IMG/VR virus record: IMGVR_UViG_2703718854_000003
Direction: 5' to 3' (one strand)
Origin: a virus
Taxonomy: Duplodnaviria; Heunggongvirae; Uroviricota; Caudoviricetes
Length of the DNA stretch: 36,981 bases
Below, in pieces: positions 8,823 to 32,100 of this stretch. The position numbers and the translations under genes were made by a program. The notes beneath the pieces were generated by a model that worked only from the letters and a program-made list of their open reading frames with translations, was not told where the DNA came from and did no database searches. Position 1 is the first letter of the stretch. Every line of letters begins with the position of its first letter.

Positions 8823-9092
8823 GAAACGTTGCTGGCGTCTGAACTTGCTTCTGGCGTCAGCAAGGTTGAACAACGAGCTATGCGAGGCGTTAGTGTCAAT
8901 TTGTTATCTTAACCACTATATATGCCAGGAAATTAACAGTTCTTAAGAAACCGCTTGCATGATCGAGCGCATTGAACTTAAGTTTAAGTAACGAAATCAA
9001 CAGATGATATTGTTGTCTAAATTTTAAAGATAATCTGTTGAGGTTGTAGGCGTCGGAGTGTAGACTTCCGCGCCATGTGAAAAGGGGGAGTT

Positions 9093-9308
9093 ATGTCAAG
9101 CATCGCCGCATTTAGCCTGGGTAACCCAGTTGAACGTCTGGCAAGGGTTCTTAAAGAGAACCAGGACAAACTCAATCTTAGTAAAGATGGTTTTGTGTCC
9201 GTAGACTTGTCTAACAAAAGAGCAATGGATGCCATCAAGGCACAGATGGATAAGCTTGAAGGCATCAAAACGAGCACTGTAAAAGAGAAAACTAATAGAA
9301 CCAGATAA
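9093..9308 (+). CDS. Hypothetical small protein (71 aa)
   Basis: Strong SD (AAAGGGGGAG) 3-12 nt upstream of ATG; stop overlaps the start of the next gene (TAATG). Confidence 0.55.
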   Translation: MSSIAAFSLGNPVERLARVLKENQDKLNLSKDGFVSVDLSNKRAMDAIKAQMDKLEGIKTSTVKEKTNRTR

Positions 9309-10150
9309 TGGCAACATTACTTTTAGCAGTGATTTTGGTTAGTGGTTTTATTTATGTAAACCTATCACTTTCAACAAGATACCGATATAAGCGTTCCAAC
9401 GGCTGGGACGCTTATTTTTTTGTGGCTGCCTGGGGTATCGTTTTTTTTCTCCTTGGCGGTTTTTTCACCTTTATTTTGAACGTCAGCGGAGGGTTTCGTT
9501 GGCTGGCTAATGCCTTGAATCTAACACCTGACAGTTTTAATGGCATGTTGTCTTCATCGAAAGACAAACTTCAAAGAATAAATGAAATCAAACAGATAGC
9601 ATGGGTTATGATTTCAATTGTTCTCGCTGCGATTTCAGGTTTTGGAAATAAGTTACGCACATCACGTGGAGATCGTCGCTGGGATGCCTTAGCTAAAGCT
9701 GTGGGTAATAACGCTTTCGAATCATTACTCATGGAAGCGTCCGCAAGACAGTTTCCGATCATAGCAACTCTGTCGTCTCGCAAAATCTATGTTGGTCTTG
9801 TTACTTGTCCGGCGTTAGAAAACGGGCTTTCAGAACACCTTGAACTTCTCCCGATGTTAAGCGGATATCGGGATAAAGATGATCTAACGATTAGTATCAC
9901 GACTAACTATCACCAACATTATCTTGATAGTGGTGTGATAAGTGGAATGTCTCGGCTTAATATCGAAGATTTCCGTGTGCTCATACCAAAAGATGAGGTT
10001 GAAACAATTTCGTTTTTTGATACTGAGACATATAACAAATTTAAAGAAAATGAAGCCAGGGATAGAAAGAACTGTCGAAAGATTGGTAGTAAAAGTGCAT
10101 CTTCGCGCAGCAAGCGTGCAGCAGATGCTGAGTCAAATGATCGTGCATGA
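9308..10150 (+). CDS. Hypothetical membrane protein (three N-terminal TM helices plus C-terminal soluble domain)
   Basis: Hydrophobic segments LLLAVILVSGFIYV, FFVAAWGIVFFLLGGFFTFIL, IAWVMISIVLAAISGF; translationally coupled to the 71-aa ORF; followed by an intrinsic terminator. Confidence 0.6.
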   Translation: MATLLLAVILVSGFIYVNLSLSTRYRYKRSNGWDAYFFVAAWGIVFFLLGGFFTFILNVSGGFRWLANALNLTPDSFNGMLSSSKDKLQRINEIKQIAWVMISIVLAAISGFGNKLRTSRGDRRWDALAKAVGNNAFESLLMEASARQFPIIATLSSRKIYVGLVTCPALENGLSEHLELLPMLSGYRDKDDLTISITTNYHQHYLDSGVISGMSRLNIEDFRVLIPKDEVETISFFDTETYNKFKENEARDRKNCRKIGSKSASSRSKRAADAESNDRA

Positions 10151-10198
10151 CTATGCTGCATGAGATCGCATGATCGTTTGAGGATCGTTTTTGCTAAG

Positions 10199-10222
10199 GC
10201 CCGCCAGAACTGGCGGGCTTTT
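10199..10222 (+). terminator. Rho-independent terminator
   Basis: GC stem GCCCGCC-AGAACT-GGCGGGC followed by TTTT. Confidence 0.75.
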
Positions 10223-10267
10223 GCGTAGATCATGCACCTGCATGAAAACTACTACATAAAGCGGGCA

Positions 10268-10286
10268 GGCGTGGCGGGGATACGAG
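10268..10286. other. Candidate cos (cohesive-end) core of the prophage
   Basis: GGCGTGGCGGGGATACGAG resembles the P2/186 19-nt cohesive-end sequence as I remember it (GGCG-A/T-GGCGGGGAAAGCA-C/T). Lies in the region where P2 has cos, but is separated from Q by the retron-like cassette. Confidence 0.45.
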
Positions 10287-10319
10287 CGCGCGCTGAGCTG
10301 CATTCACTTGAATAATCCG

Positions 10320-10500
10320 TATGTTAGTGCTAGCCTAGCTGTGCCCTTAGCAGGAAAGTACATTCAATATGTTACTTTCTAGTGGTTGGTGTTTAGCCAA
10401 CTCGTATGGATTGCTTGGTATCTCGACACAAGTTAGCCTTGTGTCATTTATAGACACCAGGCTAACTTGTGTCTCGGGAACTCTTGTATGGGCATTAATT
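10320..10500 (+). ncRNA. Candidate retron msr-msd non-coding RNA (boundaries approximate)
   Basis: Structured non-coding stretch immediately upstream of the effector-RT pair. Small stem-loops (AAAGTACA-TTCAATA-TGTTACTTT at 10346-10369; GTTGG-TGTTTAG-CCAAC) are followed by a long hairpin at 10425-10473 (14-bp perfect stem GACACAAGTTAGCC/GGCTAACTTGTGTC enclosing inner stem GTGTC/GACAC), typical of an msd. The flanking a1/a2 inverted repeats could not be identified. Confidence 0.45.
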
Positions 10501-10503
10501 GTT

Positions 10504-11421
10504 ATGTGGTTTAAACATCCTAGATATTTACGAGCAAAAGAAAATTTTATTTCAAGTTTTTTTCCAAGTAACTTGAATTCTTTTAATTATATCCTGCCAA
10601 AAGTATTATTTATTTGTGGAGGAGATGAGACTTATTGTTCAAATAGAGGGATGCTGGAAAAATATATTGCTAAGCATCATAAAGAATTTGTTACTTTTCG
10701 AGCAGAATTAGCATGGGAAGTAATTAGCAATTTAGGAACTCATAGTAATGTGAATGCGCTATCACTTGAAGAATGGCTTGCGGATTTTTCTGATGTGGTA
10801 ATTATTCTCGTAGAGAGTTATGGCACTGTAGCTGAATTGGGCGCATTTTCATTAAGTCCTGTTTTACGTAAAAAACTTCTTCCTATATTAGATAAAAAGT
10901 TTGAAAGTCATAAGTCATTTATCAATACAGGGCCCGTAAAATGGGTTGATAGTGAATCCAAATTTGGCCCTACAATCTATACTGAATTTGAGACAATTTT
11001 AACGTGTATGCCTAAAATAAATGAAAGGCTAAATAGGAAAGTTCAATCAAACATAACTAATACAAATTCAATAGGTGATTACAAATATTCACCAAAAATT
11101 TTTTTATTTTTTGTGCTCGTTGTTATATCTTCTTTAGGTCCAATAACAATTCCTGAGATTATTAATATCACAGGTAGGTTGATAAATTATAAAATTAATA
11201 AAAATATTTCATTTGTTGTTTCTATTGGAGTTGCCCTTGGGATTTTTAAGGAAAGTCGATTTGAGGGCGTGACCCATTATTCATGTGTCGATTATATTAA
11301 ATTTTTTAATCATGAAAAGATGAAAGATTTAGTTGAAAGTATTCAACGAAGTAGAGCTAGATCATTATCCGATTTAATAATGATATCTAAATTCAAAGCA
11401 GAATTAGAAAGGATCATGTGA
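10504..11421 (+). CDS. Candidate retron effector: NDT-like (nucleoside deoxyribosyltransferase-like N-glycosidase) domain plus C-terminal putative DNA-binding domain
   Basis: AT-rich gene directly abutting the RT. Motifs KVLFICGGDE and DVVIILVESYGTVAELGAFS resemble NDT-like folds found in type II retron effectors. ORF-track start 10369 overlaps the hairpin, so start placed at in-frame ATG 10504 (10651 also possible). Domain assignment is from motif memory. Confidence 0.5.
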   Translation: MWFKHPRYLRAKENFISSFFPSNLNSFNYILPKVLFICGGDETYCSNRGMLEKYIAKHHKEFVTFRAELAWEVISNLGTHSNVNALSLEEWLADFSDVVIILVESYGTVAELGAFSLSPVLRKKLLPILDKKFESHKSFINTGPVKWVDSESKFGPTIYTEFETILTCMPKINERLNRKVQSNITNTNSIGDYKYSPKIFLFFVLVVISSLGPITIPEIINITGRLINYKINKNISFVVSIGVALGIFKESRFEGVTHYSCVDYIKFFNHEKMKDLVESIQRSRARSLSDLIMISKFKAELERIM

Positions 11422-11422
11422 T

Positions 11423-12352
11423 ATGTTAATTGAGTATCTAGCTAAAGTTTTACTGTTAGAAGCTGATTTTATATTAAAAGTTGCAAATGATGCTAACTCG
11501 CATTATGGTAAATTTTCTGTACCTAAAAAAGGCGGTGGGACAAGAATCGTCTATCAGCCCTCTAAAGAATTAAAAGTTTTGCAGAGATTACTTCATGATA
11601 ATGTTCTGTCGAAATTGCCGATTCATCCAAATGCTGTAGCATATCAGCAGGGTTCATCAGTGTTCAAACATGCAAGCATTCACAAAGCTAAACGTTTTAT
11701 GCTTAAGATGGACTTTGAAGGTTTTTTTGATTCAATTAAGAAAAGTGATGTTGAGAGATTTATAAACGACAACAAGCATTTCTTCAGTGATGATTGGTCA
11801 AAGGATGATACTGATTTGCTGGTGAAAATAGTATGCTTTAACGGGAGACTGACTATGGGTGCTGTTAGTTCCCCTGTGGTAAGCAATGCTATATGCTATG
11901 AATTAGATCATATATTGAATGAATTTTGTCTTTCAAAAGGTATAACATATACACGCTATGCTGATGATATGTACTTCTCAACAAACGAAGAAAATGTATT
12001 GAAGCAAATACCACCTTTTTTACGCTCGAATTTAAAAAATTTGAAATACCCATCAAAACTATGGATTAATAGAAAAAAGACACTGCATATGTCAAAGAAA
12101 AATAAAATGATGGTTACGGGTGTGACTTTGACAACAGATGGTGGAGTATCCTTAGGGAGAGATAAAAAAAGGATGGTTAAATCGCTTATTTTTAAATGGG
12201 AGGCTCTTGATGAGAAGAAAAGGCTATTTCTTCAAGGATATTTATCGTATTGCAAAAGTGTTGAGCCATTATTTATTAATAGGCTTTGTGCGAAATATTC
12301 ATCAGAGCTGATTGATGAAATCCAGAGATATCAACCTGTAGTATCAGAATAA
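11423..12352 (+). CDS. Retron-type reverse transcriptase
   Basis: RT motifs in order: PKKGGGTRIVYQPS (motif 1/2), LKMDFEGFFDSI (motif A), SSPVVSN (motif B'), YTRYADDMYF (motif C, YADD) and the retron-typical VTG triplet (KMMVTGVTL). About 309 aa, similar in layout to the Ec86 RT. AAAGGA SD; start 2 nt after the effector stop. Confidence 0.8.
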   Translation: MLIEYLAKVLLLEADFILKVANDANSHYGKFSVPKKGGGTRIVYQPSKELKVLQRLLHDNVLSKLPIHPNAVAYQQGSSVFKHASIHKAKRFMLKMDFEGFFDSIKKSDVERFINDNKHFFSDDWSKDDTDLLVKIVCFNGRLTMGAVSSPVVSNAICYELDHILNEFCLSKGITYTRYADDMYFSTNEENVLKQIPPFLRSNLKNLKYPSKLWINRKKTLHMSKKNKMMVTGVTLTTDGGVSLGRDKKRMVKSLIFKWEALDEKKRLFLQGYLSYCKSVEPLFINRLCAKYSSELIDEIQRYQPVVSE

Positions 12353-12358
12353 CGTGTG

Positions 12359-12389
12359 TGCGCATGAAAATTTCCATGCGCATTTTCTT
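12359..12389 (+). terminator. Intrinsic terminator after the retron-like operon (overlaps the 3' end of Q)
   Basis: Stem TGCGCATG/CATGCGCA with 8-nt loop, followed by TTTTCTT on the plus strand. Confidence 0.6.
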
Positions 12390-13413
12390 AAAAACAGTAG
12401 TCATTAAATGAAATAATTTCTTTTCCAGCCCAGTTATTCAGTGATTCAAAATTCTTTTGCAATGGCATTAACTCATTCCGCACAAACACTTTGCTTGCCT
12501 TCTCCACATCCCCAAATCCCCCAACACTATTAGGCATAATCCCCATCATCTGCGGCGGCACGCGGTGTGCCGCCATCATGTCATCGCGACTAACATTTTT
12601 GATATTCAAAAACTCATCCTTCGCCGCGACTTCTGACAATGGGATGATCTGAAGCCCGTCTTTTTTGCCGTTAGGCGAGTACATAAACAGGTTGCGGAAG
12701 TTGCCTGGCCCTTTGGCGCTTTTCATCGCGTTGCGGAGGTTGTTCACATCCTCCTGGTTCTGAGCGGCATCGGTCATGTACATTATGAATCCTGCATGGC
12801 TGCCATTAATATAATATTTGCGTCGGAACAGCGTGGCGGACTCGTTGAGCAGGGCTGACGGAATGGCAGAAAGATAACCGGGCAGGCCGTAGATCTCCTG
12901 GTTGATATCGGGTTCCATCAGATGAAAGATGCTGCCTTTCGTGAACTGATACGGCTGGGTTGTCATGCCGTATTGCACAAACCAGTAGGTATCCAGGTCT
13001 AACCCACGTCGGGTGTATTTTGCCAGAGCAGGCTCAAGGGCGATAACTTCACCGAACCGGTTCGTGCGTTTCTCCAGGTATGCGTTACCAAATACCAGAT
13101 AGTCCTGCACAAAACGTGAAAAAGCCTGCTGGCTGAGAAGCGGGTGAGGGATGTAGGTACTGGTCAGAATGTTGCATTTCACCGCAATTGGTGAACTGTG
13201 ATGCACGGCAGCGCGGAAGGTTCGCGCCAGTCCGTCAAAACTCACTGGCGGCTCATACCAGCGATCTGTCTGTACGCATTCCACATAGTCCAGCAGTTCG
13301 CGGCGGTCCAGAACAGGAACGGGATCGCCAAAGCTGAATGCTTCGGCTGAAGTCTGGCTTTTATGCTGAATCTGGTTCGTCGACACAGCGCGGTTCTTCT
13401 TACTCTTTCCCAT
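12388..13413 (-). CDS. Q: Portal protein (P2 gpQ-like)
   Basis: About 341 aa, N-terminus MGKSKKNR...; lies in the Q-P pair divergent from O-N-M-L as in P2; start chosen at ATG 13413. Confidence 0.8.
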   Translation of the reverse strand: MGKSKKNRAVSTNQIQHKSQTSAEAFSFGDPVPVLDRRELLDYVECVQTDRWYEPPVSFDGLARTFRAAVHHSSPIAVKCNILTSTYIPHPLLSQQAFSRFVQDYLVFGNAYLEKRTNRFGEVIALEPALAKYTRRGLDLDTYWFVQYGMTTQPYQFTKGSIFHLMEPDINQEIYGLPGYLSAIPSALLNESATLFRRKYYINGSHAGFIMYMTDAAQNQEDVNNLRNAMKSAKGPGNFRNLFMYSPNGKKDGLQIIPLSEVAAKDEFLNIKNVSRDDMMAAHRVPPQMMGIMPNSVGGFGDVEKASKVFVRNELMPLQKNFESLNNWAGKEIISFNDYCF

Positions 13414-23027: not shown

Positions 23028-23625
23028 TCTGCTGCCACCGGGTTCAACACCACTGGAGCGCCGACTGGCGCAAACCTGCAGCGGGATTTCTGATCTGCAA
23101 GTGCCGCTGCGTGACTTGTGGAATCCGGCAACCTGTCCGGTCAGTTTCCTGCCTTACCTCGCCTGGGCGTTCTCTGTGGATCGCTGGGACGAGGGCTGGA
23201 CAGAAAGCGTCAAACGCCAGGTAGTGAAGGATGCTTTTTATATTCATCAGCACAAAGGAACCACCAGTGCCGTACGGCGGGTGGTGGAGCCGTTCGGCTT
23301 CCTGATCCGCATTATTGAGTGGTGGCAGACCGGAGAAACACCGGGCACGTTTCGCCTGGATATCGGCGTGCAGGACCAGGGCATCACTGAAGATACCTAT
23401 CTGGAACTTGAGCGGCTGATAAGCGATGCCAAACCATGTAGCCGTCACATGATCGGCATGTCCATCAATCTGCAGACCAGCGGTCCGCATTGGGTGGGGG
23501 CCGCCAGCTATCTTGGCGAAGAAATCACGATCTATCCGTATATCAACGAAACAATTATTTCCGGCGGCACCGCGCATGAAGGCGGGGCGGTCCATGTTAT
23601 TGACACAATGAGAGTGAATCCATGA
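23020..23625 (+). CDS. I: Baseplate/tail-fibre attachment protein (P2 gpI-like)
   Basis: 201 aa; synteny. Confidence 0.7.
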
Positions 23626-25019
23626 GCACAAAATTTTATACCCTGCTGACGGATATTGGCGCGGCGAAACTTGCCAGCGCCGCCGCGCTCGGTGTGCCGC
23701 TAAAAATTACCCATATGGCGGTGGGCGATGGCGGCGGAGCATTGCCGACGCCGGACGCAAAGCAGACGGCACTGGTAAATGAGAAACGCCGGGCTGCGCT
23801 GAATATGCTCTATATCGACCCGCAGAACAGCAGCCAGATTATTGCTGAACAGGTGATCCCTGAAAATGAGGGTGGTTGGTGGATACGTGAAGTGGGTCTG
23901 TTTGATGAGTCCGGGGCATTGATTGCCGTGGGCAACTGCCCGGAAAGCTATAAGCCGCAACTGGCTGAAGGCAGCGGGCGTACCCAGACCGTGCGCATGG
24001 TGCTGATTACCAGCAGCACGGACAATATCACCCTGAAAATCGACCCTGCTGTAGTGCTGGCAACCCGCAAGTATGTGGATGACAAGGCACTGGAGCTGAA
24101 GGTGTACGTGGATGACCTGATGGCAAAACATCTTGCCGCGCCGGACCCGCATTCACAGTATGCACCCAAAGAAAGTCCAACGTTTACCGGAACCCCCAAA
24201 GCGCCAACGCCAGCGGCGGGGAATAATACCACGCAGCTTGCGACCACCGCGTTTGTACAGGCGGCACTGACGGCCCTTATTAATGGTGCGCCAGCCACGC
24301 TGGACACGCTGAAAGAAATAGCCGCAGCCATTAACAATGATCCGAATTTCAGTACCACCATTAACAATGTGCTGGCACTAAAAGCACCGTTGTCGAGTCC
24401 GGCACTCACCGGAACGCCAACAGCCCCCACGGCGGCACAGTCGGTCAACAATACACAGATTGCCACTACGGCTTTTGTGAAATCGGCGATTGCGGCAATG
24501 GTGGGTTCTGCACCTGCGGCACTGGATACACTGAACGAACTGGCGGCGGCGCTGGGGAATGACCCGAACTTTGCCACGACAATGCTTAATGCACTGGCAG
24601 GTAAACAACCGCTGGACAATACGCTGACTAATTTGAGTGGAAAGGATGTAGCTGGTCTTCTCGCATACCTTGGTTTGGGAACGGCATCGAAAAGGAATGT
24701 CGGGACGGGGGCAAATCAGATACCGGACATGTCCGCCTTCGCGTCAGGATCTGGGTATCAAAAACTACCGGGAGGATACATTTTGCAGTGGGGATCTGCG
24801 AATGCAGGTAACTCAGCATCAACGGGAATATCTAATACGTTCCCAATTCCATTCCCGTCAGGGATTATCATCATTACGACCGGGCAGATTGACCCCTCTT
24901 ATACTTCAGCACAACAGCCAGCAGCAGTCGGTATTTCGTCGCCCACTACCACTGGGTTTATTGCGAAGTCAGCCGCAGCTAACTCGGATGCCTTTAACTA
25001 TTTAGCGATTGGGTACTGA
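23622..25019 (+). CDS. H: Tail fibre protein (P2 gpH-like) with invertible C-terminal variable region
   Basis: N-terminus [24 protein letters not shown] resembles P2 H as I recall it. Internal repeated PNF(S/A)TT..N.LA.K.PL blocks; the C-terminus (...NYLAIGY) parallels the oppositely oriented alternative segment at 25860-26243. Confidence 0.8.
24658..24683 (+). repeat. Candidate invertase crossover site (left inverted repeat) inside H
   Basis: TTCTCGCATACC-TT-GGTTTGGGAACG; shares the TT-GGTTT(G/A)GGA core, in inverted orientation, with the site at 26190-26215; resembles the 26-bp hix/gix architecture (AAACC-NN-GGTTT core). Confidence 0.5.
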
Positions 25020-25020
25020 C

Positions 25021-25455
25021 ATGGGAAATTATATTTTTAGTCCATCAAAAAATGCTTTCTATCCGTTTGAGCTAAAAACTTCATACGAAGCAACAGACTC
25101 ATGGCCGGAGGATGGAGTTGATGTAGAAGATTCTATTTTTATAGAGTTCACAGGAATTCCACCTGAGGGAATGATTCGTGGGGTTAGCGATAAAAACATG
25201 CCAGTCTGGGTTCTGCGCCCTGAACCTACACAAGATGAGTTAATTGCAAATGCTGAAGCAAAAAAACAATACCTTATTGAACAAGCGAACAATTACATCA
25301 ATAGTAAGCAGTGGCCCGGCAAAGCCGCTTTAGGTCGCCTGAAAGACGTGGAAAAAGGGCAATATAATCTGTGGCTGGATTATCTCGATGCGCTGGAGGC
25401 CGTAGACACCTCCGGCGCACCAGATATTAACTGGCCTGAGTCGCCGGAGGCGTAG
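25021..25455 (+). CDS. Tail fibre assembly protein (chaperone), orientation-A copy
   Basis: N-terminus MGNYIFSPSKNAFYP...; paralogous to the minus-strand copy at 25427-25858. Confidence 0.75.
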   Translation: MGNYIFSPSKNAFYPFELKTSYEATDSWPEDGVDVEDSIFIEFTGIPPEGMIRGVSDKNMPVWVLRPEPTQDELIANAEAKKQYLIEQANNYINSKQWPGKAALGRLKDVEKGQYNLWLDYLDALEAVDTSGAPDINWPESPEA

Positions 25456-25858
25456 GCCATTCCGGGTCTGCTGTTTCAACACGCATCAGCAGCACCCGGT
25501 ATTTTTTCCATTCAGTAAGCGCGGCGGTTTCAACTTCCGTCGCGATGCCTACATCAACGGCATCCTGTCGCCATGCTATTTCTGAATCTGCAATAACGCG
25601 CAGGGCTGCTTTTTTGTCTTCATTTGCAGCAATTATGTCTTCTTGAGTTGGTGCTGGTATATCTGTCCATGCCGGAAGGCCGTCATCACCTGCTATTCTC
25701 ATCTTTCCTTTTTCAGCAGGCGTCTGAATAAAGTTAAATACAATATCATCGCTAACTTCCACTGAATCCTCAGGCCACGCCCCTGATTTAAGGTATTCAG
25801 ATCTTAAATCAGAAAGATAAAACTCATTTTTGGAAGGACTATAAAAAAACTTATCCAT
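25427..25858 (-). CDS. Tail fibre assembly protein, alternative (orientation-B) copy
   Basis: N-terminus MDKFFYSPSKNEFYLSDL..., paralogous to the plus-strand copy; convergent with it inside the invertible segment. Confidence 0.75.
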   Translation of the reverse strand: MDKFFYSPSKNEFYLSDLRSEYLKSGAWPEDSVEVSDDIVFNFIQTPAEKGKMRIAGDDGLPAWTDIPAPTQEDIIAANEDKKAALRVIADSEIAWRQDAVDVGIATEVETAALTEWKKYRVLLMRVETADPEWPTPPATQAS

Positions 25859-25859
25859 A

Positions 25860-26243
25860 TTAATAACCTATAGCCAGATAATAGAATTGTTCTGATGATG
25901 ACAAGGTGCTTTTTGCAATAATTGACGCCCTTGTAACATTGCAGAACCCTATCGCTCCAGGAATAGAGGTTGACGTATATGTCTGATCGACATTACCAGT
26001 CATAACTGTAAATACCTGATTTGGAAAGGTGAAAGGGAAGTTACAAACAAGCCCTGTAGAATTTGATCCTCCAGCTGTGCCGTATGCCCATTGAATGATA
26101 AGCGTCTTTTTATCAGTGCCAAGTAGCACAGGTAATCTCAACCAGCCATTTTCTCCAAATGATGCACTTGCTGCATCTAACTTAGCGGCTCCTCCTAAAC
26201 CAACGTTTAAGAAAATGAAGAGATAACGGCTAACTGGCATCAT
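25860..26243 (-). CDS. Alternative tail-fibre C-terminal variable segment (becomes fused to H after inversion)
   Basis: Minus-strand frame whose end (...SEQFYYLAIGY) parallels the H C-terminus (...[11 protein letters not shown]); its 5' end runs through the crossover site, so it lacks an independent start. Confidence 0.65.
   Translation of the reverse strand: MMPVSRYLFIFLNVGLGGAAKLDAASASFGENGWLRLPVLLGTDKKTLIIQWAYGTAGGSNSTGLVCNFPFTFPNQVFTVMTGNVDQTYTSTSIPGAIGFCNVTRASIIAKSTLSSSEQFYYLAIGY
26190..26215 (-). repeat. Candidate invertase crossover site (right inverted repeat)
   Basis: Reverse complement reads TTTTCTTAAACG-TT-GGTTTAGGAGGA; inverted relative to the site in H; about 50 bp upstream of the invertase gene. 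Confidence 0.5.
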
Positions 26244-26264
26244 TTCCGGTTTCTATTCAGGGGG

Positions 26265-26837
26265 ATGATCATGCTTATTGGATATGTACGCGTGTCAACA
26301 AATGACCAGAACACCGATTTGCAACGCAATGCGCTGAACTGCGCGGGATGTGAGCGGATTTTTGAGGATAAAATCAGTGGCACTAAGTCCGACAGACCGG
26401 GGCTGAAAAAACTGCTCAGGACACTATCGGCAGGAGACACGCTGGTTGTCTGGAAGCTGGACAGGTTGGGGCACAGTATGCGGCATCTTGTTACGCTGAT
26501 AGAAGAGTTGCGCCAGCGTGGTGTGAATTTCCGAAGCCTGACTGACAGTATTGATACCAGTACCCCAATGGGCCGTTTCTTTTTTCATGTCATGGGTGCC
26601 CTGGCTGAAATGGAACGCGAACTGATAGTTGAACGTACCAGGGCAGGGCTGGCTGCAGCTCGTGCTAAAGGCAGAGTAGGTGGACGCCGTCCTAAGTTGA
26701 CCACTGAACAGTGGGCACAGATTGGACGTTTACTCGAGGCCGGAGAATCAAGACAGCGTATTGCACTGATTTTTGATGTAGGCGTTTCTACCATTTATAG
26801 AAAATTTCCGGCAAATAAGAGCAATGAATCCCCCTGA
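26265..26837 (+). CDS. Serine recombinase DNA invertase (Hin/Gin/Cin/Pin family)
   Basis: N-terminal catalytic motif (M)LIGYVRVSTNDQNTDLQ with the active-site Ser in YVRVS; C-terminal HTH (GVSTIYRKF). Start at 26265 or 26271. Confidence 0.9.
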   Translation: MIMLIGYVRVSTNDQNTDLQRNALNCAGCERIFEDKISGTKSDRPGLKKLLRTLSAGDTLVVWKLDRLGHSMRHLVTLIEELRQRGVNFRSLTDSIDTSTPMGRFFFHVMGALAEMERELIVERTRAGLAAARAKGRVGGRRPKLTTEQWAQIGRLLEAGESRQRIALIFDVGVSTIYRKFPANKSNESP

Positions 26838-26885
26838 ATCAGCATAATTTTGATTATCCCTGCAAGCAGACAAATACCGTCATTT

Positions 26886-26979: not shown

Positions 26980-28152
26980 ATGGCTCAGGATTACCACCAC
27001 GGGGTGCGCGTTGTTGAAGTCAACGAAGGCACCCGATCCATTACCACGGTGAGCACCGCCATCGTGGGCATGGTCTGCACGGGCGATGATGCCGATGCAA
27101 AAATGTTTCCTCTTAATAAACCTGTACTGATCACTGATGTGCTTACCGCCAGCGGTAAAGCGGGTGAGTCCGGCACGCTGGCCCGTTCGCTGGATGCCAT
27201 CTCTGACCAGGCAAAACCCGTGACCGTTGTTGTGCGTGTGCCGCAGGGTGAAACGGAAGAAGAAACCACGACCAATATCATCGGCGCAGTGACCGCTGAA
27301 GGTAAAAAAACTGGCATGAAAGCCCTGTTATCTGCACAGGCACAGCTCGGCGTTAAACCGCGCATTCTCGGCGTGCCAGGTCACGATAACAAAGCCGTTG
27401 CTACTGAGTTGCTGAGCGTGGCGCAAAGCCTGCGTGGGTTTGCTTACCTGTCAGCGTATGGCTGCAAGACGATACAGGAGGCGATCACTTACCGCGAAAA
27501 CTTCAGCCAGCGCGAAGGGATGCTGATCTGGCCTGACTTTACTGGCTGGGACACGGTGCTGAATGCCGAAGCAACGGCATATGCCACCGCCCGTGCGCTT
27601 GGTCTGCGCGCCAAAATTGATGAGCAGACTGGATGGCACAAAAGCCTGTCCAACGTGGGCGTGAACGGTGTCACCGGAATTTCTGCTGATGTGTTCTGGG
27701 ATCTGCAGGACCCGGCAACCGATGCAGGTCTGCTGAACCAGAACGACGTCACCACGCTTGTGCGTAAAGACGGTTTCCGCTTCTGGGGTTCCCGCTGCCT
27801 GAGTGATGACCCGCTCTTTGCCTTCGAAAACTACACCCGCACGGCGCAGGTGCTGATGGACACGATGGCAGAAGCACACATGTGGGCGGTGGATAAACCG
27901 CTTAACCCGTCGCTGGCCCGCGACATTATCGAAGGTATCCGCGCCAAAATGCGCAGCCTGGTCAGTCAGGGCTATCTCATTGGTGGTGATTGCTGGCTGG
28001 ATGAGTCGGTGAACGACAAAGACACGCTGAAAGCCGGAAAACTCACCATCGACTATGACTACACGCCAGTGCCGCCACTTGAAAATCTGATGCTGCGCCA
28101 GCGCATCACCGATCAGTACCTGGTGAATTTCGCCAGCCAGGTCAGCGCGTAA
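26980..28152 (+). CDS. FI: Contractile tail sheath protein (P2 gpFI-like)
   Basis: 390 aa; N-terminus [19 protein letters not shown]...[12 protein letters not shown] resembles P2 FI as I recall it; synteny. Confidence 0.85.
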
Positions 28153-29168: not shown

Positions 29169-32100
29169 CAATAACCTGCGTCTGCAGGTCATTCTTAATG
29201 CGGTTGACAAGCTCACCCGCCCATTTCGATCTGCGCAGGCCAGTTCAAGAGAACTGGCTGCTGCTGTCAAAAAATCCCGCGATGCAATAAAGCAGCTTGA
29301 TCAGGCCGGGAGCAGTCTGGACAGCTTCCGAAAGCTGCAGGCAGAAAATCAGAAATTAGGCGACAGGCTGAGCTATGCCCGCCAGCGTGCAAATTTGCTC
29401 AGTCAGGAACTGGGAGCGATGGGGCCGCCTTCGCAACGTCAGGTTGTTGCTCTGGGCCGTCAACGGCTGGCTGTTCAGCGCCTGGAAGAACGCCAGAAAA
29501 AGCTGCAGCAGCAGACGGCGCTTGTGCGTGCAGAACTTTATCGTGCTGGTATTTCAGCTAATGATGGTGCCAGTGCGACGGCCCGCATTACCCGTGAAAC
29601 GATGCGTTATAACAGGCAGCTTTCTGAGCAGGAAGCGAGGTTACGACGTGTCGGGGAGCAACAGCGAAAAATGCACGCCGCCCGAGGGGCTTACGCCAGG
29701 CGTCTTGAAGTAAGGGATCGGATTGCAGGTGCCGGAGCCACCACCACGGCTGCAGGGCTGGCAATGGGCGCACCAGTGATGGCGGCAGTAAAAAGCTATA
29801 CCAGCATGGAAGATGCCATGAAAGGTGTGGCAAAGCAGGTCAATGGTCTGCGTGACGATAATGGCAACCGCACTGCACGTTTTTATGAAATGCAGGATGC
29901 CATCAAGGCTGCCAGCGAACAATTGCCGATGGAAAACGGTGCGGTGGATTTCGCTGCACTGGTTGAAGGTGGTGCGCGCATGAACGTCGCAAACCCTGAC
30001 GACAGCTGGGAAGACCAGAAACGTGACCTGCTGGCCTTCGCCAGTACGGCAGCAAAGGCGGCAACAGCCTTTGAGCTGCCAGCGGATGAACTGTCAGAAA
30101 GTCTGGGGAAAATCGCCCAGCTCTACAAAATCCCTACCCGCAATATTGAACAGCTCGGTGATGCGCTGAATTATCTGGATGATAACGCCATGTCGAAAGG
30201 TGCAGACATCATTGATGTCATGCAACGCCTGGGCGGTGTGGCTGATCGTCTGGATTATCGTAAAGCGGCGGCGCTGGGTTCCACCTTCCTGACACTGGGC
30301 GCTGCGCCAGAGGTTGCAGCCAGTGCAGCAAACGCGATGGTGCGTGAATTGTCCATTGCCACCATGCAAAGCAAGAGTTTCTTTGAAGGGATGAATCTGC
30401 TGAAACTCAATCCTGAAGTGATTGAAAAGCAGATGACGAAGGATGCGATGGGAACCATCCAGCGCGTGCTGGAGAAGGTGAACGCACTGCCGCAGGACAA
30501 GCGTCTGTCTGCCATGACCATGTTGTTTGGTAAAGAGTTTGGTGATGACGCGGCGAAACTGGCAAACAACCTTCCGGAACTGCAGCGCCAGCTAAAACTG
30601 ACAGCGGGCAATGATGCGCTCGGTTCCATGCAGAAAGAATCCGACATCAACAAAGACTCACTTTCTGCTCAGTGGTTGCTGGTCAAAACCGGAGCGCAGA
30701 ACACCTTCAGCAGCCTGGGCGAAACGCTGCGCCAACCGCTGATGGATATTCTGTACACGGTGAAAAGCATCACGGGGGCGTTGCGCCGCTGGGTGGAAGC
30801 TAACCCGGAACTGACAGGCACACTGATGAAAGCAGCGGCTGTTGTGGCTGCGGTTACTGTCGGCCTCGGCACCTTAGCGGTGGCGCTGGCTGCAGTGCTG
30901 GGGCCGCTGGCAGTGATCCGTCTGGGATTCTCTGTGCTGGGTATCAAAACGTTACCTTCCGTTACGGCAGCAGTAACTCGAACCAGCAGCGCGTTGTCCT
31001 GGTTAGCTGGCGCACCACTGATACTGCTGCGACGCGGGCTTGCTTCATCGGGCAACGCTGCGGGTTTACTTACTGCACCGTTGTCATCTTTGCGCCGCAC
31101 GGCATCACTGACGGGAAATGTCATGAAAACTGTAGCAGGTGCGCCGGTTGCACTTTTGCGGTCTGGATTATCCGGTTTACGTGCTGTTGCTGTGATGTTT
31201 ATGAATCCTCTGGCGGTACTGCGCGGTGGACTGGTCGCCGCAGGCACGGTGCTGCGAGTACTGGCATCTGGTCCACTGGCGATGCTGCGCGTTGCCCTGT
31301 ATGCCGTATCTGGTCTGTTAGGTGCTCTGCTCAGTCCGATAGGTCTTGTGGTTACTGCACTGGCGGGCGTGGCGCTGGTTGTCTGGAAATACTGGCAACC
31401 CATCACCGCATTTCTTGGTGGCGTGGTGGAAGGATTCAAAGCGGCGGCAGGTCCCGTCAGTGCAGCATTCGAACCACTTAAGCCTGTGTTCCAGTGGATT
31501 GGCGACAAAGTGCAGGCGCTGTGGGGCTGGTTTACTGATCTGCTGACGCCCGTTAAGTCGACCTCTGCCGAACTGCAGAGCGCAGCGGCAATGGGGCGGC
31601 GATTCGGGGAGGCACTGGCGGAAGGGCTGAATATGGTCATGCATCCGCTGGACTCCCTGAAATCCGGCGTTTCCTGGTTGCTGGAGAAGCTCGGCATTGT
31701 CAGTAAAGAGGCCGCAAAGGCAAAACTGCCGGAAAGCGTGACGCGTCAGCAACCTGCGACGGTGAATGCAGACGGTAAAGTGATGATGCCATCGGGTGGT
31801 TTTCCATCATGGGGATATGGCTTTGCGGGGATGTATGACAGCGGCGGGTATATCCCGCGCGGGCAGTTTGGCATCGTCGGTGAAAACGGGCCGGAAATTG
31901 TTAACGGCCCGGCAAATGTGACCAGCCGGAGAAATACAGCTGCACTGGCTGCCGTTGTTGCCGGAATGATGGGCGTTGCTGCCGCGCCAGCAGAGCTTCC
32001 ACCGTTGCACCCTTTGGCACTTCCCGCGAAAGGTGGAGAAGCAATTGTGAGTCGCGCAGCCACTGTGCCGCTCGTTCAACGGATTGAGGCACCGACGAAG

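Follow-up and report, generated by a model that had tools for sequence, protein, structure and literature searches.

The window, by which we mean the whole stretch of 36,981 nt analysed here, very probably carries an invertible tail-fibre segment of the Din family (Gin/Cin/Pin/Hin/Fin-type) within a P2-like E. coli prophage (Peduoviridae, Cartapus/Elveevirus-like). As a Mu/P1-type tail-fibre switch in a P2-like prophage, it belongs to a kind that is already known. A preceding sequence-only reading had let the element extend from 24658 to 26837. The H 3' end, two opposed tail-fibre assembly genes, an inverted alternative H C-terminus and a nearby invertase gene are all found where it had placed them. 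However, the invertible DNA proper covers 24670-26203 only, that is, 1,534 bp between two inverted 26-bp crossover sites, and the invertase gene lies outside of it and most likely starts at 26271.

The window is collinear at 94–97% with the P2-like phage Cartapus (Peduoviridae, Elveevirus), in whose record homologues of P2 gpV, W, J, I, FI, FII, E, T, U, D and Ogr are annotated and, at the same place as here, a 'Mu phage Gin invertase homolog'. The gene order V-W-J-I-H-G ... FI-FII-E-T-U-D is that of a P2-like tail module, and the genes around it have Pfam families consistent with this. The flanks of the segment are present in 1586 out of 5426 complete E. coli genomes (about 30%), and the same arrangement occurs also in Fels-2, P88 and ENT90. 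The switch had been regarded as grafted into a P2-like tail module. The module is indeed P2-like, but the arrangement is the standard one of a large group of P2-like prophages and not a novel graft.

Gene content of the segment and its crossover sites

The gpH-like tail fibre gene (23622-25019, plus strand, 465 aa; Pfam Phage_tail_fib N-terminus and Gp53-like_C) reaches across the left boundary of the segment. Its constant N-terminal part, Hc (23622..24669, 349 codons), lies outside and matches Phage_tail_fib at residues 1-150 (E = 3e-65); all related loci are collinear with the window at 95–99% up to about 24680. The expressed variable C-terminus, Sv (24670..25019, plus strand, including the stop codon), is a gp53-like C-terminal domain (Pfam Gp53-like_C at H residues 381-465, E = 3e-13). 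It is followed by the gene of its assembly chaperone, Tfa (25021..25455, plus strand, 144 aa; Pfam Caudo_TAP, E = 1e-32), which we take to be the analogue of P2 gpG and Mu U and whose counterpart in a related locus (L001) is annotated as tail fiber assembly protein. On the minus strand follow the alternative chaperone Tfa' (25427..25858, 143 aa; Caudo_TAP, E = 4e-29), silent in the sequenced orientation, and the alternative H C-terminus Sv' (25860..26203, 114 codons plus stop; Gp53-like_C, E = 7e-11), which in this orientation is a promoterless silent cassette. Identity amounts to 38% between Sv and Sv' and to 36% between the two chaperones. With a constant fibre N-terminus outside and two opposed C-termini inside, each accompanied by one chaperone, the layout is that of a Mu G or P1 C segment. 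A mechanically predicted reading frame that extends Sv' to 26243 was rejected as an artefact, as it reads through the crossover site. For annotation it is of use that the 127-aa ORF labelled 'gp53-like domain-containing protein' is the silent cassette.

The left 26-bp site (24658-24683), TTCTCGCATACC-TT-GGTTTGGGAACG, has its central TT at 24670-24671 and is located within the H coding sequence (codons ..AYLGLG..). The right one (26190-26215), TCCTCCTAAACC-AA-CGTTTAAGAAAA, has its central AA at 26202-26203, at a distance of 68 bp before the start of the invertase gene. In inverted orientation the two match at 17 of 26 positions. When the 37-kb window was scanned with a palindromic consensus of the family, the left and the right site scored 19/24 and 18/24 and were the top two, followed by a next best score of 15; a score of 18 was reached in just one of 50 shuffles. 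The core TT-GGTTT(G/A)GGA, which the sequence-only reading had considered common to two inverted sites, is contained in both 26-bp sites. By itself this 12-nt core is not significant (three matches in comparison to 1.0 expected; 8 of 100 shuffles were equal), and therefore we draw support from the full 26-bp sites, their placement relative to the reading frame and the comparative data. It had also been suggested to align the candidate sites with gix, hix and cix. Both turn out to be imperfect palindromes around an identical 2-bp core (TT/AA) in inverted orientation, which is the architecture of Din-family sites, and the half-site pattern TTnTCnnAAACC is common to them, gix and cix. Furthermore, the homology breakpoint of all relatives falls at the left site, and the outer half-site CGTTTAAGAAAA of the right site is invariant across 13 out of 13 related loci. 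A shufflon with a third site, as in one EPEC prophage, was considered as well, but apart from these two nothing in the window scores better than expected by chance. This points to a simple two-state switch.

The invertase and its histidine 68 allele

The gene next to the right site (26271..26837, plus strand) codes for a Din-family serine DNA invertase of 188 aa (Pfam Resolvase, 7e-52; HTH_7, 1e-15). It matches the Mu Gin structure 3UJ3 in full length (residues 1-184, E = 4e-92) and shares 74% identity with Gin, 79% with Cin, 85% with Salmonella Fin ('serine-type DNA invertase Fin') and ~98–99% with the enzymes of Cartapus-type prophages. The catalytic Ser9 in YVRVSTNDQ (MLIGYVRVSTNDQ; Gin S9, motif GYxRVSTxDQ) is invariant in the alignment. 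Size, resolvase domain, C-terminal HTH and high identity all place the protein in the Din family, as the sequence-only reading had supposed when naming it a Hin/Gin-type enzyme. An alternative ORF of 190 aa, starting at 26265, gave no match in an exact look-up, whereas the 188-aa form was matched exactly. Therefore the start codon is most likely the ATG at 26271, as annotated in relatives.

Codon 68 (26472..26474, plus strand) is CAC and codes for His, where relatives have CGC for the catalytic Arg; the position equals Gin R68, Hin R69 and gamma-delta/Tn3 R71. The motif reads DRLGH instead of DRLGR, with His68 aligned to gamma-delta R71, and the full set of catalytic arginines, to which the second Arg of DRLGR belongs, is not complete in the window invertase. 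Among 120 related cluster representatives position 68 is Arg in 119, and the motif could not be located in the other one. In complete E. coli genomes the His allele occurs three times, the Arg allele 612 times. The exact H68 protein is present on 230 contigs and adjoins at least seven different cassette sets, and the gene has no other lesion such as a frameshift or stop. Judged from the sequence, the substitution would bear on activity and would leave the family ancestry, which is established by homology, unaffected.

In Tn3 resolvase, the replacements R71A and R71K made cleavage ~1000-fold slower and abolished resolution in vivo (PMC2794168), and the equivalent R69 of Sin is regarded as the likely general acid (PMC6007550). 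No report on an R71H resolvase was found in the literature searched. With His in place of the catalytic Arg68, the resident invertase has probably reduced or lost its own activity, and flipping of the window copy may require that some activity is left or that the cell contains a further Din invertase. Gin, Cin, Pin, Hin and Fin can substitute for each other by cross-complementation. Each of the three complete H-allele genomes contains one to three additional Din-like invertase genes (the median E. coli genome has two), which makes complementation in trans plausible.

A putative Fis-dependent recombinational enhancer can be placed at 26289..26360, the stretch homologous in position to nt 19-90 of cin, where the P1 record annotates one. 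It contains two G-N13-C cores, GTGTCAACAAATGAC and GCGCGGGATGTGAGC, 49 bp apart. The region is 78% identical in nucleotides to the cin enhancer, a value that is inseparable from coding constraint as it lies in a conserved coding region, and its synonymous sites are not extra conserved in comparison to gin (8 of 22, elsewhere 51 of 114). A simple promoter and terminator scan yielded nothing that exceeded the expectation from shuffles, and no sigma-70 promoter that would convincingly serve the invertase. From the Gin/Cin/Hin paradigm we infer that inversion would depend on Fis and the enhancer, and that the fibre genes would be transcribed only from the upstream late promoter.

Orientation of the segment in related prophages

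When the segment is flipped in silico at the central dinucleotide, the H reading frame is retained, and the outcome is a 463-aa H' with Tfa' directly after it; the predicted left junction reads ...CTCGCATACCTTGGTTTAGGAGGAGCCGC... Copies of this kind exist in nature. In E. coli E47 (L003) the window region 24670-26206 aligns in reverse at 97.7% between collinear flanks of 95.5% and 97.0%, and in L008 the segment is reversed at 98.4%, again between collinear flanks, of which the right one is 99.96% identical. In both, Sv' is fused to Hc, the breakpoints relative to the window coincide precisely with the central dinucleotides, and the inner half-sites are swapped and reverse-complemented exactly as predicted, with the outer half-sites unchanged. 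Since the window cassettes differ by 1.6–2.3% from these flipped copies, the flips in L003 and L008 need not be recent. Closer still is the pair L006 and L011, which share an identical H68 invertase, flanks of 99.9% and a segment of 99.9–100% identity, in opposite orientations. This comparative evidence from relatives indicates that the DNA between the sites inverts. Assemblies of the segment may show either orientation. The assignment to the Mu G or P1 C type, which the sequence-only reading had made, is upheld by the Din site architecture, the frame kept upon flipping and the natural flipped copies. Among the observations that would speak against it, that reading had named a single orientation throughout together with an inactivated invertase gene. 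Both orientations are carried by related prophages; the point on the invertase gene is touched by R68H at the catalytic arginine.

A very improbable explanation is that no site-specific inversion takes place at all, and that prophages came by the opposite arrangements through homologous recombination with one another or replacement of cassettes, the site motifs being merely conserved coding sequence (GLG). Cassettes are in fact exchanged very frequently: unrelated ones were found between 99.9% identical flanks, with homology breaking at the sites, so that the crossover sites are the sharp boundaries of exchange. The divergence of the window segment from its flipped copies would also fit with replacement. 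However, the right site is located outside the expressed coding sequence and its outer half-site is nevertheless invariant. Breakpoints at the central dinucleotide with a reciprocal swap of the inner half-sites likewise speak against replacement, L006 and L011 differ essentially by a precise inversion alone, and a full-length Din invertase is found at a gin-like distance from the site. Moreover, inversion was demonstrated experimentally in P2-like E. coli prophages (PMC4272514).

Given that the segment is an invertible one, the window copy itself may be frozen: R68H would have killed the resident invertase and locked the segment in the Sv orientation unless a Din invertase acts in trans, and the orientation variants among relatives would stem from trans-acting enzymes or have arisen before or outside the H68 background. 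We regard this as a serious possibility that falls somewhat short of even. In its favour are the nature of the replaced residue, its near invariance among relatives, the rarity of the His allele and the phenotype of the Tn3 mutants. On the other hand, the exact H68 protein recurs on 230 contigs and stands beside many cassette sets, the gene is free of frameshifts and stops, and His can in principle serve as a general acid, by which partial activity is possible. A further objection comes from H68 prophages with flanks of 99.9% identity, in which a segment of 100% identity stands in one orientation or the other, from which it follows that inversion went on after the mutation arose and that flipping still occurs in the H68 lineage, be it by the H68 enzyme or by a co-resident invertase in trans. 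It is conceivable, though rather unlikely, that H68 is not a dead allele but that His acts as general acid in a slower invertase with a lower switching rate, or that the lineage has outsourced flipping to co-resident prophages. R68H is the only point of wider interest here, being a natural substitution of the catalytic Arg which persists in a lineage with orientation polymorphism. The allele could help in examining the proposed general-acid role, or in gauging the extent to which prophage switches rely on invertases acting in trans.

For the invertible segment as such we propose the following course of events. The late tail operon would read through Hc (23622-24669) into the segment (24670-26203). 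In the sequenced orientation the fibre would end in the Sv receptor-binding domain and be folded by the co-transcribed Tfa, with Sv' and Tfa' antisense and silent. The serine invertase would cut the two sites at their central TT/AA with a 2-bp stagger, rotate the ends and religate them, upon which Hc would be in frame with Sv' and Tfa' would come to lie immediately downstream. A population of lysogens would then release particles with two receptor specificities; from the Gin/Cin/Hin paradigm and the divergence of the receptor-binding tips we infer two host ranges.

Comparison with known systems

As a switch the segment offers nothing new, since its mechanism is that of the textbook and has been annotated or demonstrated in close relatives. 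The closest known systems are Fels-2 with Fin and the E. coli P2-like switches of EPEC E2348/69 and of Cartapus of LF82. For EPEC E2348/69, sequencing and PCR demonstrated inversion in its P2-like prophages (PMC4272514), and in Fels-2 the tail-fibre inversion occurs beside fin and joins alternative C-termini to a constant N-terminus (PMC7953296). The window shares with the Fels-2 type the kind of phage and the gene order I - H - tfa - tfa' - Hc' - invertase - FI sheath. It differs from the Fels-2/EPEC/Cartapus group by another pair of receptor-binding cassettes and by R68H. Of the 5426 complete E. coli genomes only three contain the complete Sv/Sv' pair, two of them in the window orientation and one flipped. 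In the phage collection the segment has no close match (10–28% covered at 66–77% identity), thus this cassette pair is absent from sequenced phage records.

Among the more distant systems, the P1 C segment with Cin resembles the window in the central TT/AA, the half-site pattern and the logic of Sv/U and Sv'/U', and cin is similar both in its product (79%) and in its region nt 19-90 (78%). However, P1 has its cin gene on the opposite side of the segment, which is 4.2 kb long and has much longer Sv parts, in contrast to 1.5 kb, gp53-like tips of ~115 aa and a P2-like host phage in case of the window. The Mu G segment has the same layout, Sc - [Sv U / U' Sv'] - invertase, with a Gin of 74% identity and a distance between site and invertase start of 67 bp, compared to 68 bp here, but its gix sites have a central TC/GA, the segment is 3 kb long, and the phage itself is transposable and its tail module unrelated. 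The P segment of e14 with Pin (pinE) and the Hin/hix system have the recombinase family and the site architecture in common with the window; e14, however, is a defective lambdoid element, and Hin flips a promoter instead of a coding cassette.

Gene order and crossover sites

The tail fibre gene H (23622-25019, + strand, 465 aa) starts with a Phage_tail_fib N-terminus (Pfam, E = 3e-65) and ends in a Gp53-like C-terminal domain. It is followed by a tail-fibre assembly gene, Tfa (25021-25455, +; Caudo_TAP, 1e-32), a second one convergent with it, Tfa' (25427-25858, -; Caudo_TAP, 4e-29), a reverse-strand ORF for the alternative tip Sv' (25860-26243, -; Gp53-like C-terminal domain, 7e-11) and a serine recombinase gene (26265/26271-26837, +; Pfam Resolvase and HTH_7). 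A sheath gene comes next in the ORF map, at 26980. ORF map and Pfam matches bear out the sequence-only reading, which had placed the H 3' end, two opposed assembly genes, an inverted alternative tip and an adjoining invertase here. The two tips are 38% identical, the two chaperones 36%; they make up two distinct pairs of tip and chaperone. The 127-aa reverse-strand ORF, named 'gp53-like domain-containing protein' by RefSeq in relatives, is the silent Sv' cassette, extended across the crossover site as far as an ATG that is there by chance; about 13 initial codons lie outside the invertible segment. In the related prophage locus L001 the constant part of H lacks about 222 bp that the window has, at 24350-24557 (391 aa vs 465 aa). 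The missing stretch falls among repeated 'TGTPxAPT...NNTQxATTAFV...APAxLDTLxExAAAxxNDPNF' units, suggesting that fibre shaft length may vary through repeat deletion.

Two 26-bp sites were read from the sequence, TTCTCGCATACC-TT-GGTTTGGGAACG on the left (24658-24683) and TCCTCCTAAACC-AA-CGTTTAAGAAAA on the right (26190-26215); in inverted orientation 17 of 26 positions are identical. The 12-nt core to which the sequence-only reading had pointed is, taken alone, not beyond chance in the window. The inverted crossover-like sites proposed within 24658-26837 hold up, being the top two matches in the whole window to the family palindromic consensus (19/24 and 18/24; the third reaches 15), and a score of 18 was attained even once in just 1 of 50 shuffles. 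No third site in the whole window scores above chance against the consensus; therefore the switch has two states and is not a shufflon. The Mu record yielded gix (TTATCCAAAACC-TC-GGTTTACAGGAA and TTCCTGTAAACC-GA-GGTTTTGGATAA), and the P1 record, which is annotated, yielded cix (CAATCCTAAACC-TT-GGTTTAAGAGAA and TTCTCTTAAACC-AA-GGTATTGGATAA). All four window half-sites match the gix/cix pattern TTnTCnnAAACC, the central dinucleotide of P1 cix, TT/AA, is that of the window sites, and the centre of the right site is 68 bp upstream of the invertase start, compared with 67 bp in Mu.

Natural inversions and exchange of cassettes

When 24670-26203 is inverted in silico, the frame is kept through the conserved ..AYL-GLG.. 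codons, yielding a 463-aa fibre, H', with the second gp53-like domain at its end and the ATG of Tfa' one base after it. A query with the predicted flipped left junction matched one complete genome, E. coli E47 (L003), over 100% of the query length. There, window 24670-26206 aligns locally in reverse at 97.7%, and the collinear flanks stop at 24680 and resume at 26193. The exact invertase protein as query led to ten more loci. The prophage locus L008 has the same segment reversed, at 98.4%; its right flank is 99.96% identical. Two other loci, L006 and L011, are 99.9% identical in their flanks and 99.9-100% identical in the segment, which lies in opposite orientation. In flipped copies the outer half-sites are unaltered and the inner ones swapped and reverse-complemented, as is predicted by crossover at the central dinucleotide. 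Sites, in-frame flip, natural inverted copies and a Gin/Cin/Fin-like invertase together support the proposed switch of Mu G / P1 C type. At the left site of L006 (2386-2411), TTCTCGCATACC-TT-CAATTGGGAGAA, the inner half is degenerate, and even so L011 is the exact inversion partner of L006; therefore poor inner half-sites still recombine, or once did.

Of 5426 complete E. coli genomes, 1586 contain the flanks (H constant part and invertase), and just 2 of these (L001 being one) have the window cassette pair in the window orientation. Every locus with different cassettes loses homology at the two sites, which therefore also bound frequent cassette replacement. Among L004-L013, the prophages that match the window at 99.9% over the right flank (4.6 kb, from the invertase to the tape-measure gene) have at least seven unrelated cassette sets between the sites, and homology breaks exactly at these (24680, 26190). 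Such sequence comparisons imply that whole invertible segments would be replaced very rapidly relative to point divergence.

The invertase and its codon 68

The recombinase aligns over its full length with the Mu Gin structure 3UJ3 (E = 4e-92). Its identity is 79% to P1 Cin, 74% to Gin, 85% to an NCBI-named 'serine-type DNA invertase Fin' and 98-99% to the invertases of many P2-like prophages from E. coli and Klebsiella. Exact protein look-up matched the 188-aa form only, which places the start codon, ATG, at 26271.

Codon 68 (26472-26474) is CAC, coding for His; relatives have CGC (Arg). In alignment it falls on gamma-delta resolvase R71, at the second Arg of the DRLGR motif, which is R68 in Gin and R69 in both Hin and Sin. 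In Tn3, R71A and R71K lower cleavage by a factor of about 1000 and leave no resolution in vivo (PMC2794168), and Sin R69 is described as the likely general acid (PMC6007550). Of 120 cluster representatives, 119 have Arg at position 68; no such motif was found in the other one. Although rare, the His allele is not confined to the window: a 41-nt probe with codon 68 at its centre found it in 3 complete E. coli genomes, versus 612 for the Arg allele, and 230 contigs encode exactly this H68 protein, accompanied by at least seven different cassette sets. L006 and L011, essentially one inversion apart, both have the H68 allele, therefore inversion went on in this lineage. The flipping may be the work of the H68 enzyme itself or of another invertase in trans; the three complete genomes in which the allele occurs contain 1 to 3 additional Din-like invertase genes, the median per E. 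coli genome being 2. We regard the R68H allele as of modest side interest.

A candidate enhancer, at nt 19-90 of the gene, is homologous to the one annotated in P1 cin, with 78% identity. It contains two G-N13-C cores, and ATTTG and CAATG elements that resemble ATTTA and TAATG described for hin. The region is coding sequence and shows no excess synonymous conservation. A scan gave no clear invertase promoter. A perfect 12-nt inverted repeat surrounds the gene, with ATTCAGGGGGAT (26255-26266) over the Shine-Dalgarno and ATCCCCCTGAAT (26828-26839) over the stop codon, and its arms are predicted to pair in MFE and centroid folds of the 625-nt transcript. The repeat could sequester the RBS and hold invertase translation low, or could be due to chance, about 1.5 such pairs being expected per 7 kb. 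It also occurs in phage Cartapus and L001-L003, all at least 96% identical, so that there is no covariation to test, and is absent in Mu, P1, P88, ENT90 and 689R6.

Relation to known phage switches

From about 3.4 to 33.8 kb the window is collinear with Escherichia phage Cartapus (Peduoviridae, Elveevirus) at 94-97%. The Cartapus record annotates homologues of P2 gpV, W, J, I, FI, FII, E, T, U, D, Ogr and A and, in the same place, a tail fibre, two assembly genes, a reversed 'tail fiber protein' and a 'DNA-invertase, Mu phage Gin invertase homolog'. Window 8893-12455 has no counterpart in Cartapus. The variable P2 'hotspot' between gpA and the portal gene holds retron-like type II-A defence cargo (9308-12352, +), consisting of an NDT_II-A effector (10369-11421; PADLOC, 1e-53) followed by a reverse transcriptase (11423-12352; RT_II-A, 4e-105; Pfam RVT_1). 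No Rfam match to an msr/msd was found at gathering threshold, and no family matched the 280-aa ORF 9308-10150. About 430 bp of the tape-measure gene (29260-29692) are unaligned to Cartapus, and the adjoining part is divergent in L010 (95%); by sequence, this stretch resembles a local patch of mosaicism.

The arrangement seen in the window recurs in P88 and ENT90, which belong to other Peduoviridae genera. The inversion systems of Mu, P1 and e14 are textbook examples. Goldberg et al. (2014) detected phase variation by inversion in two of the P2-like prophages that EPEC E2348/69 carries, with PCR validation given for a four-variant shufflon locus and the two-state locus shown in supplementary figures (PMC4272514). 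The Fels-2 tail fibre gene inverts beside fin, joining alternative C-termini to a constant N-terminus (Zaworski et al. 2021, PMC7953296). In view of the EPEC, Fels-2, Mu, P1 and e14 precedents the window is therefore one more copy of a described system; its switch is of a kind already known and, as a switch, of low interest, and its cassette pair is rare.
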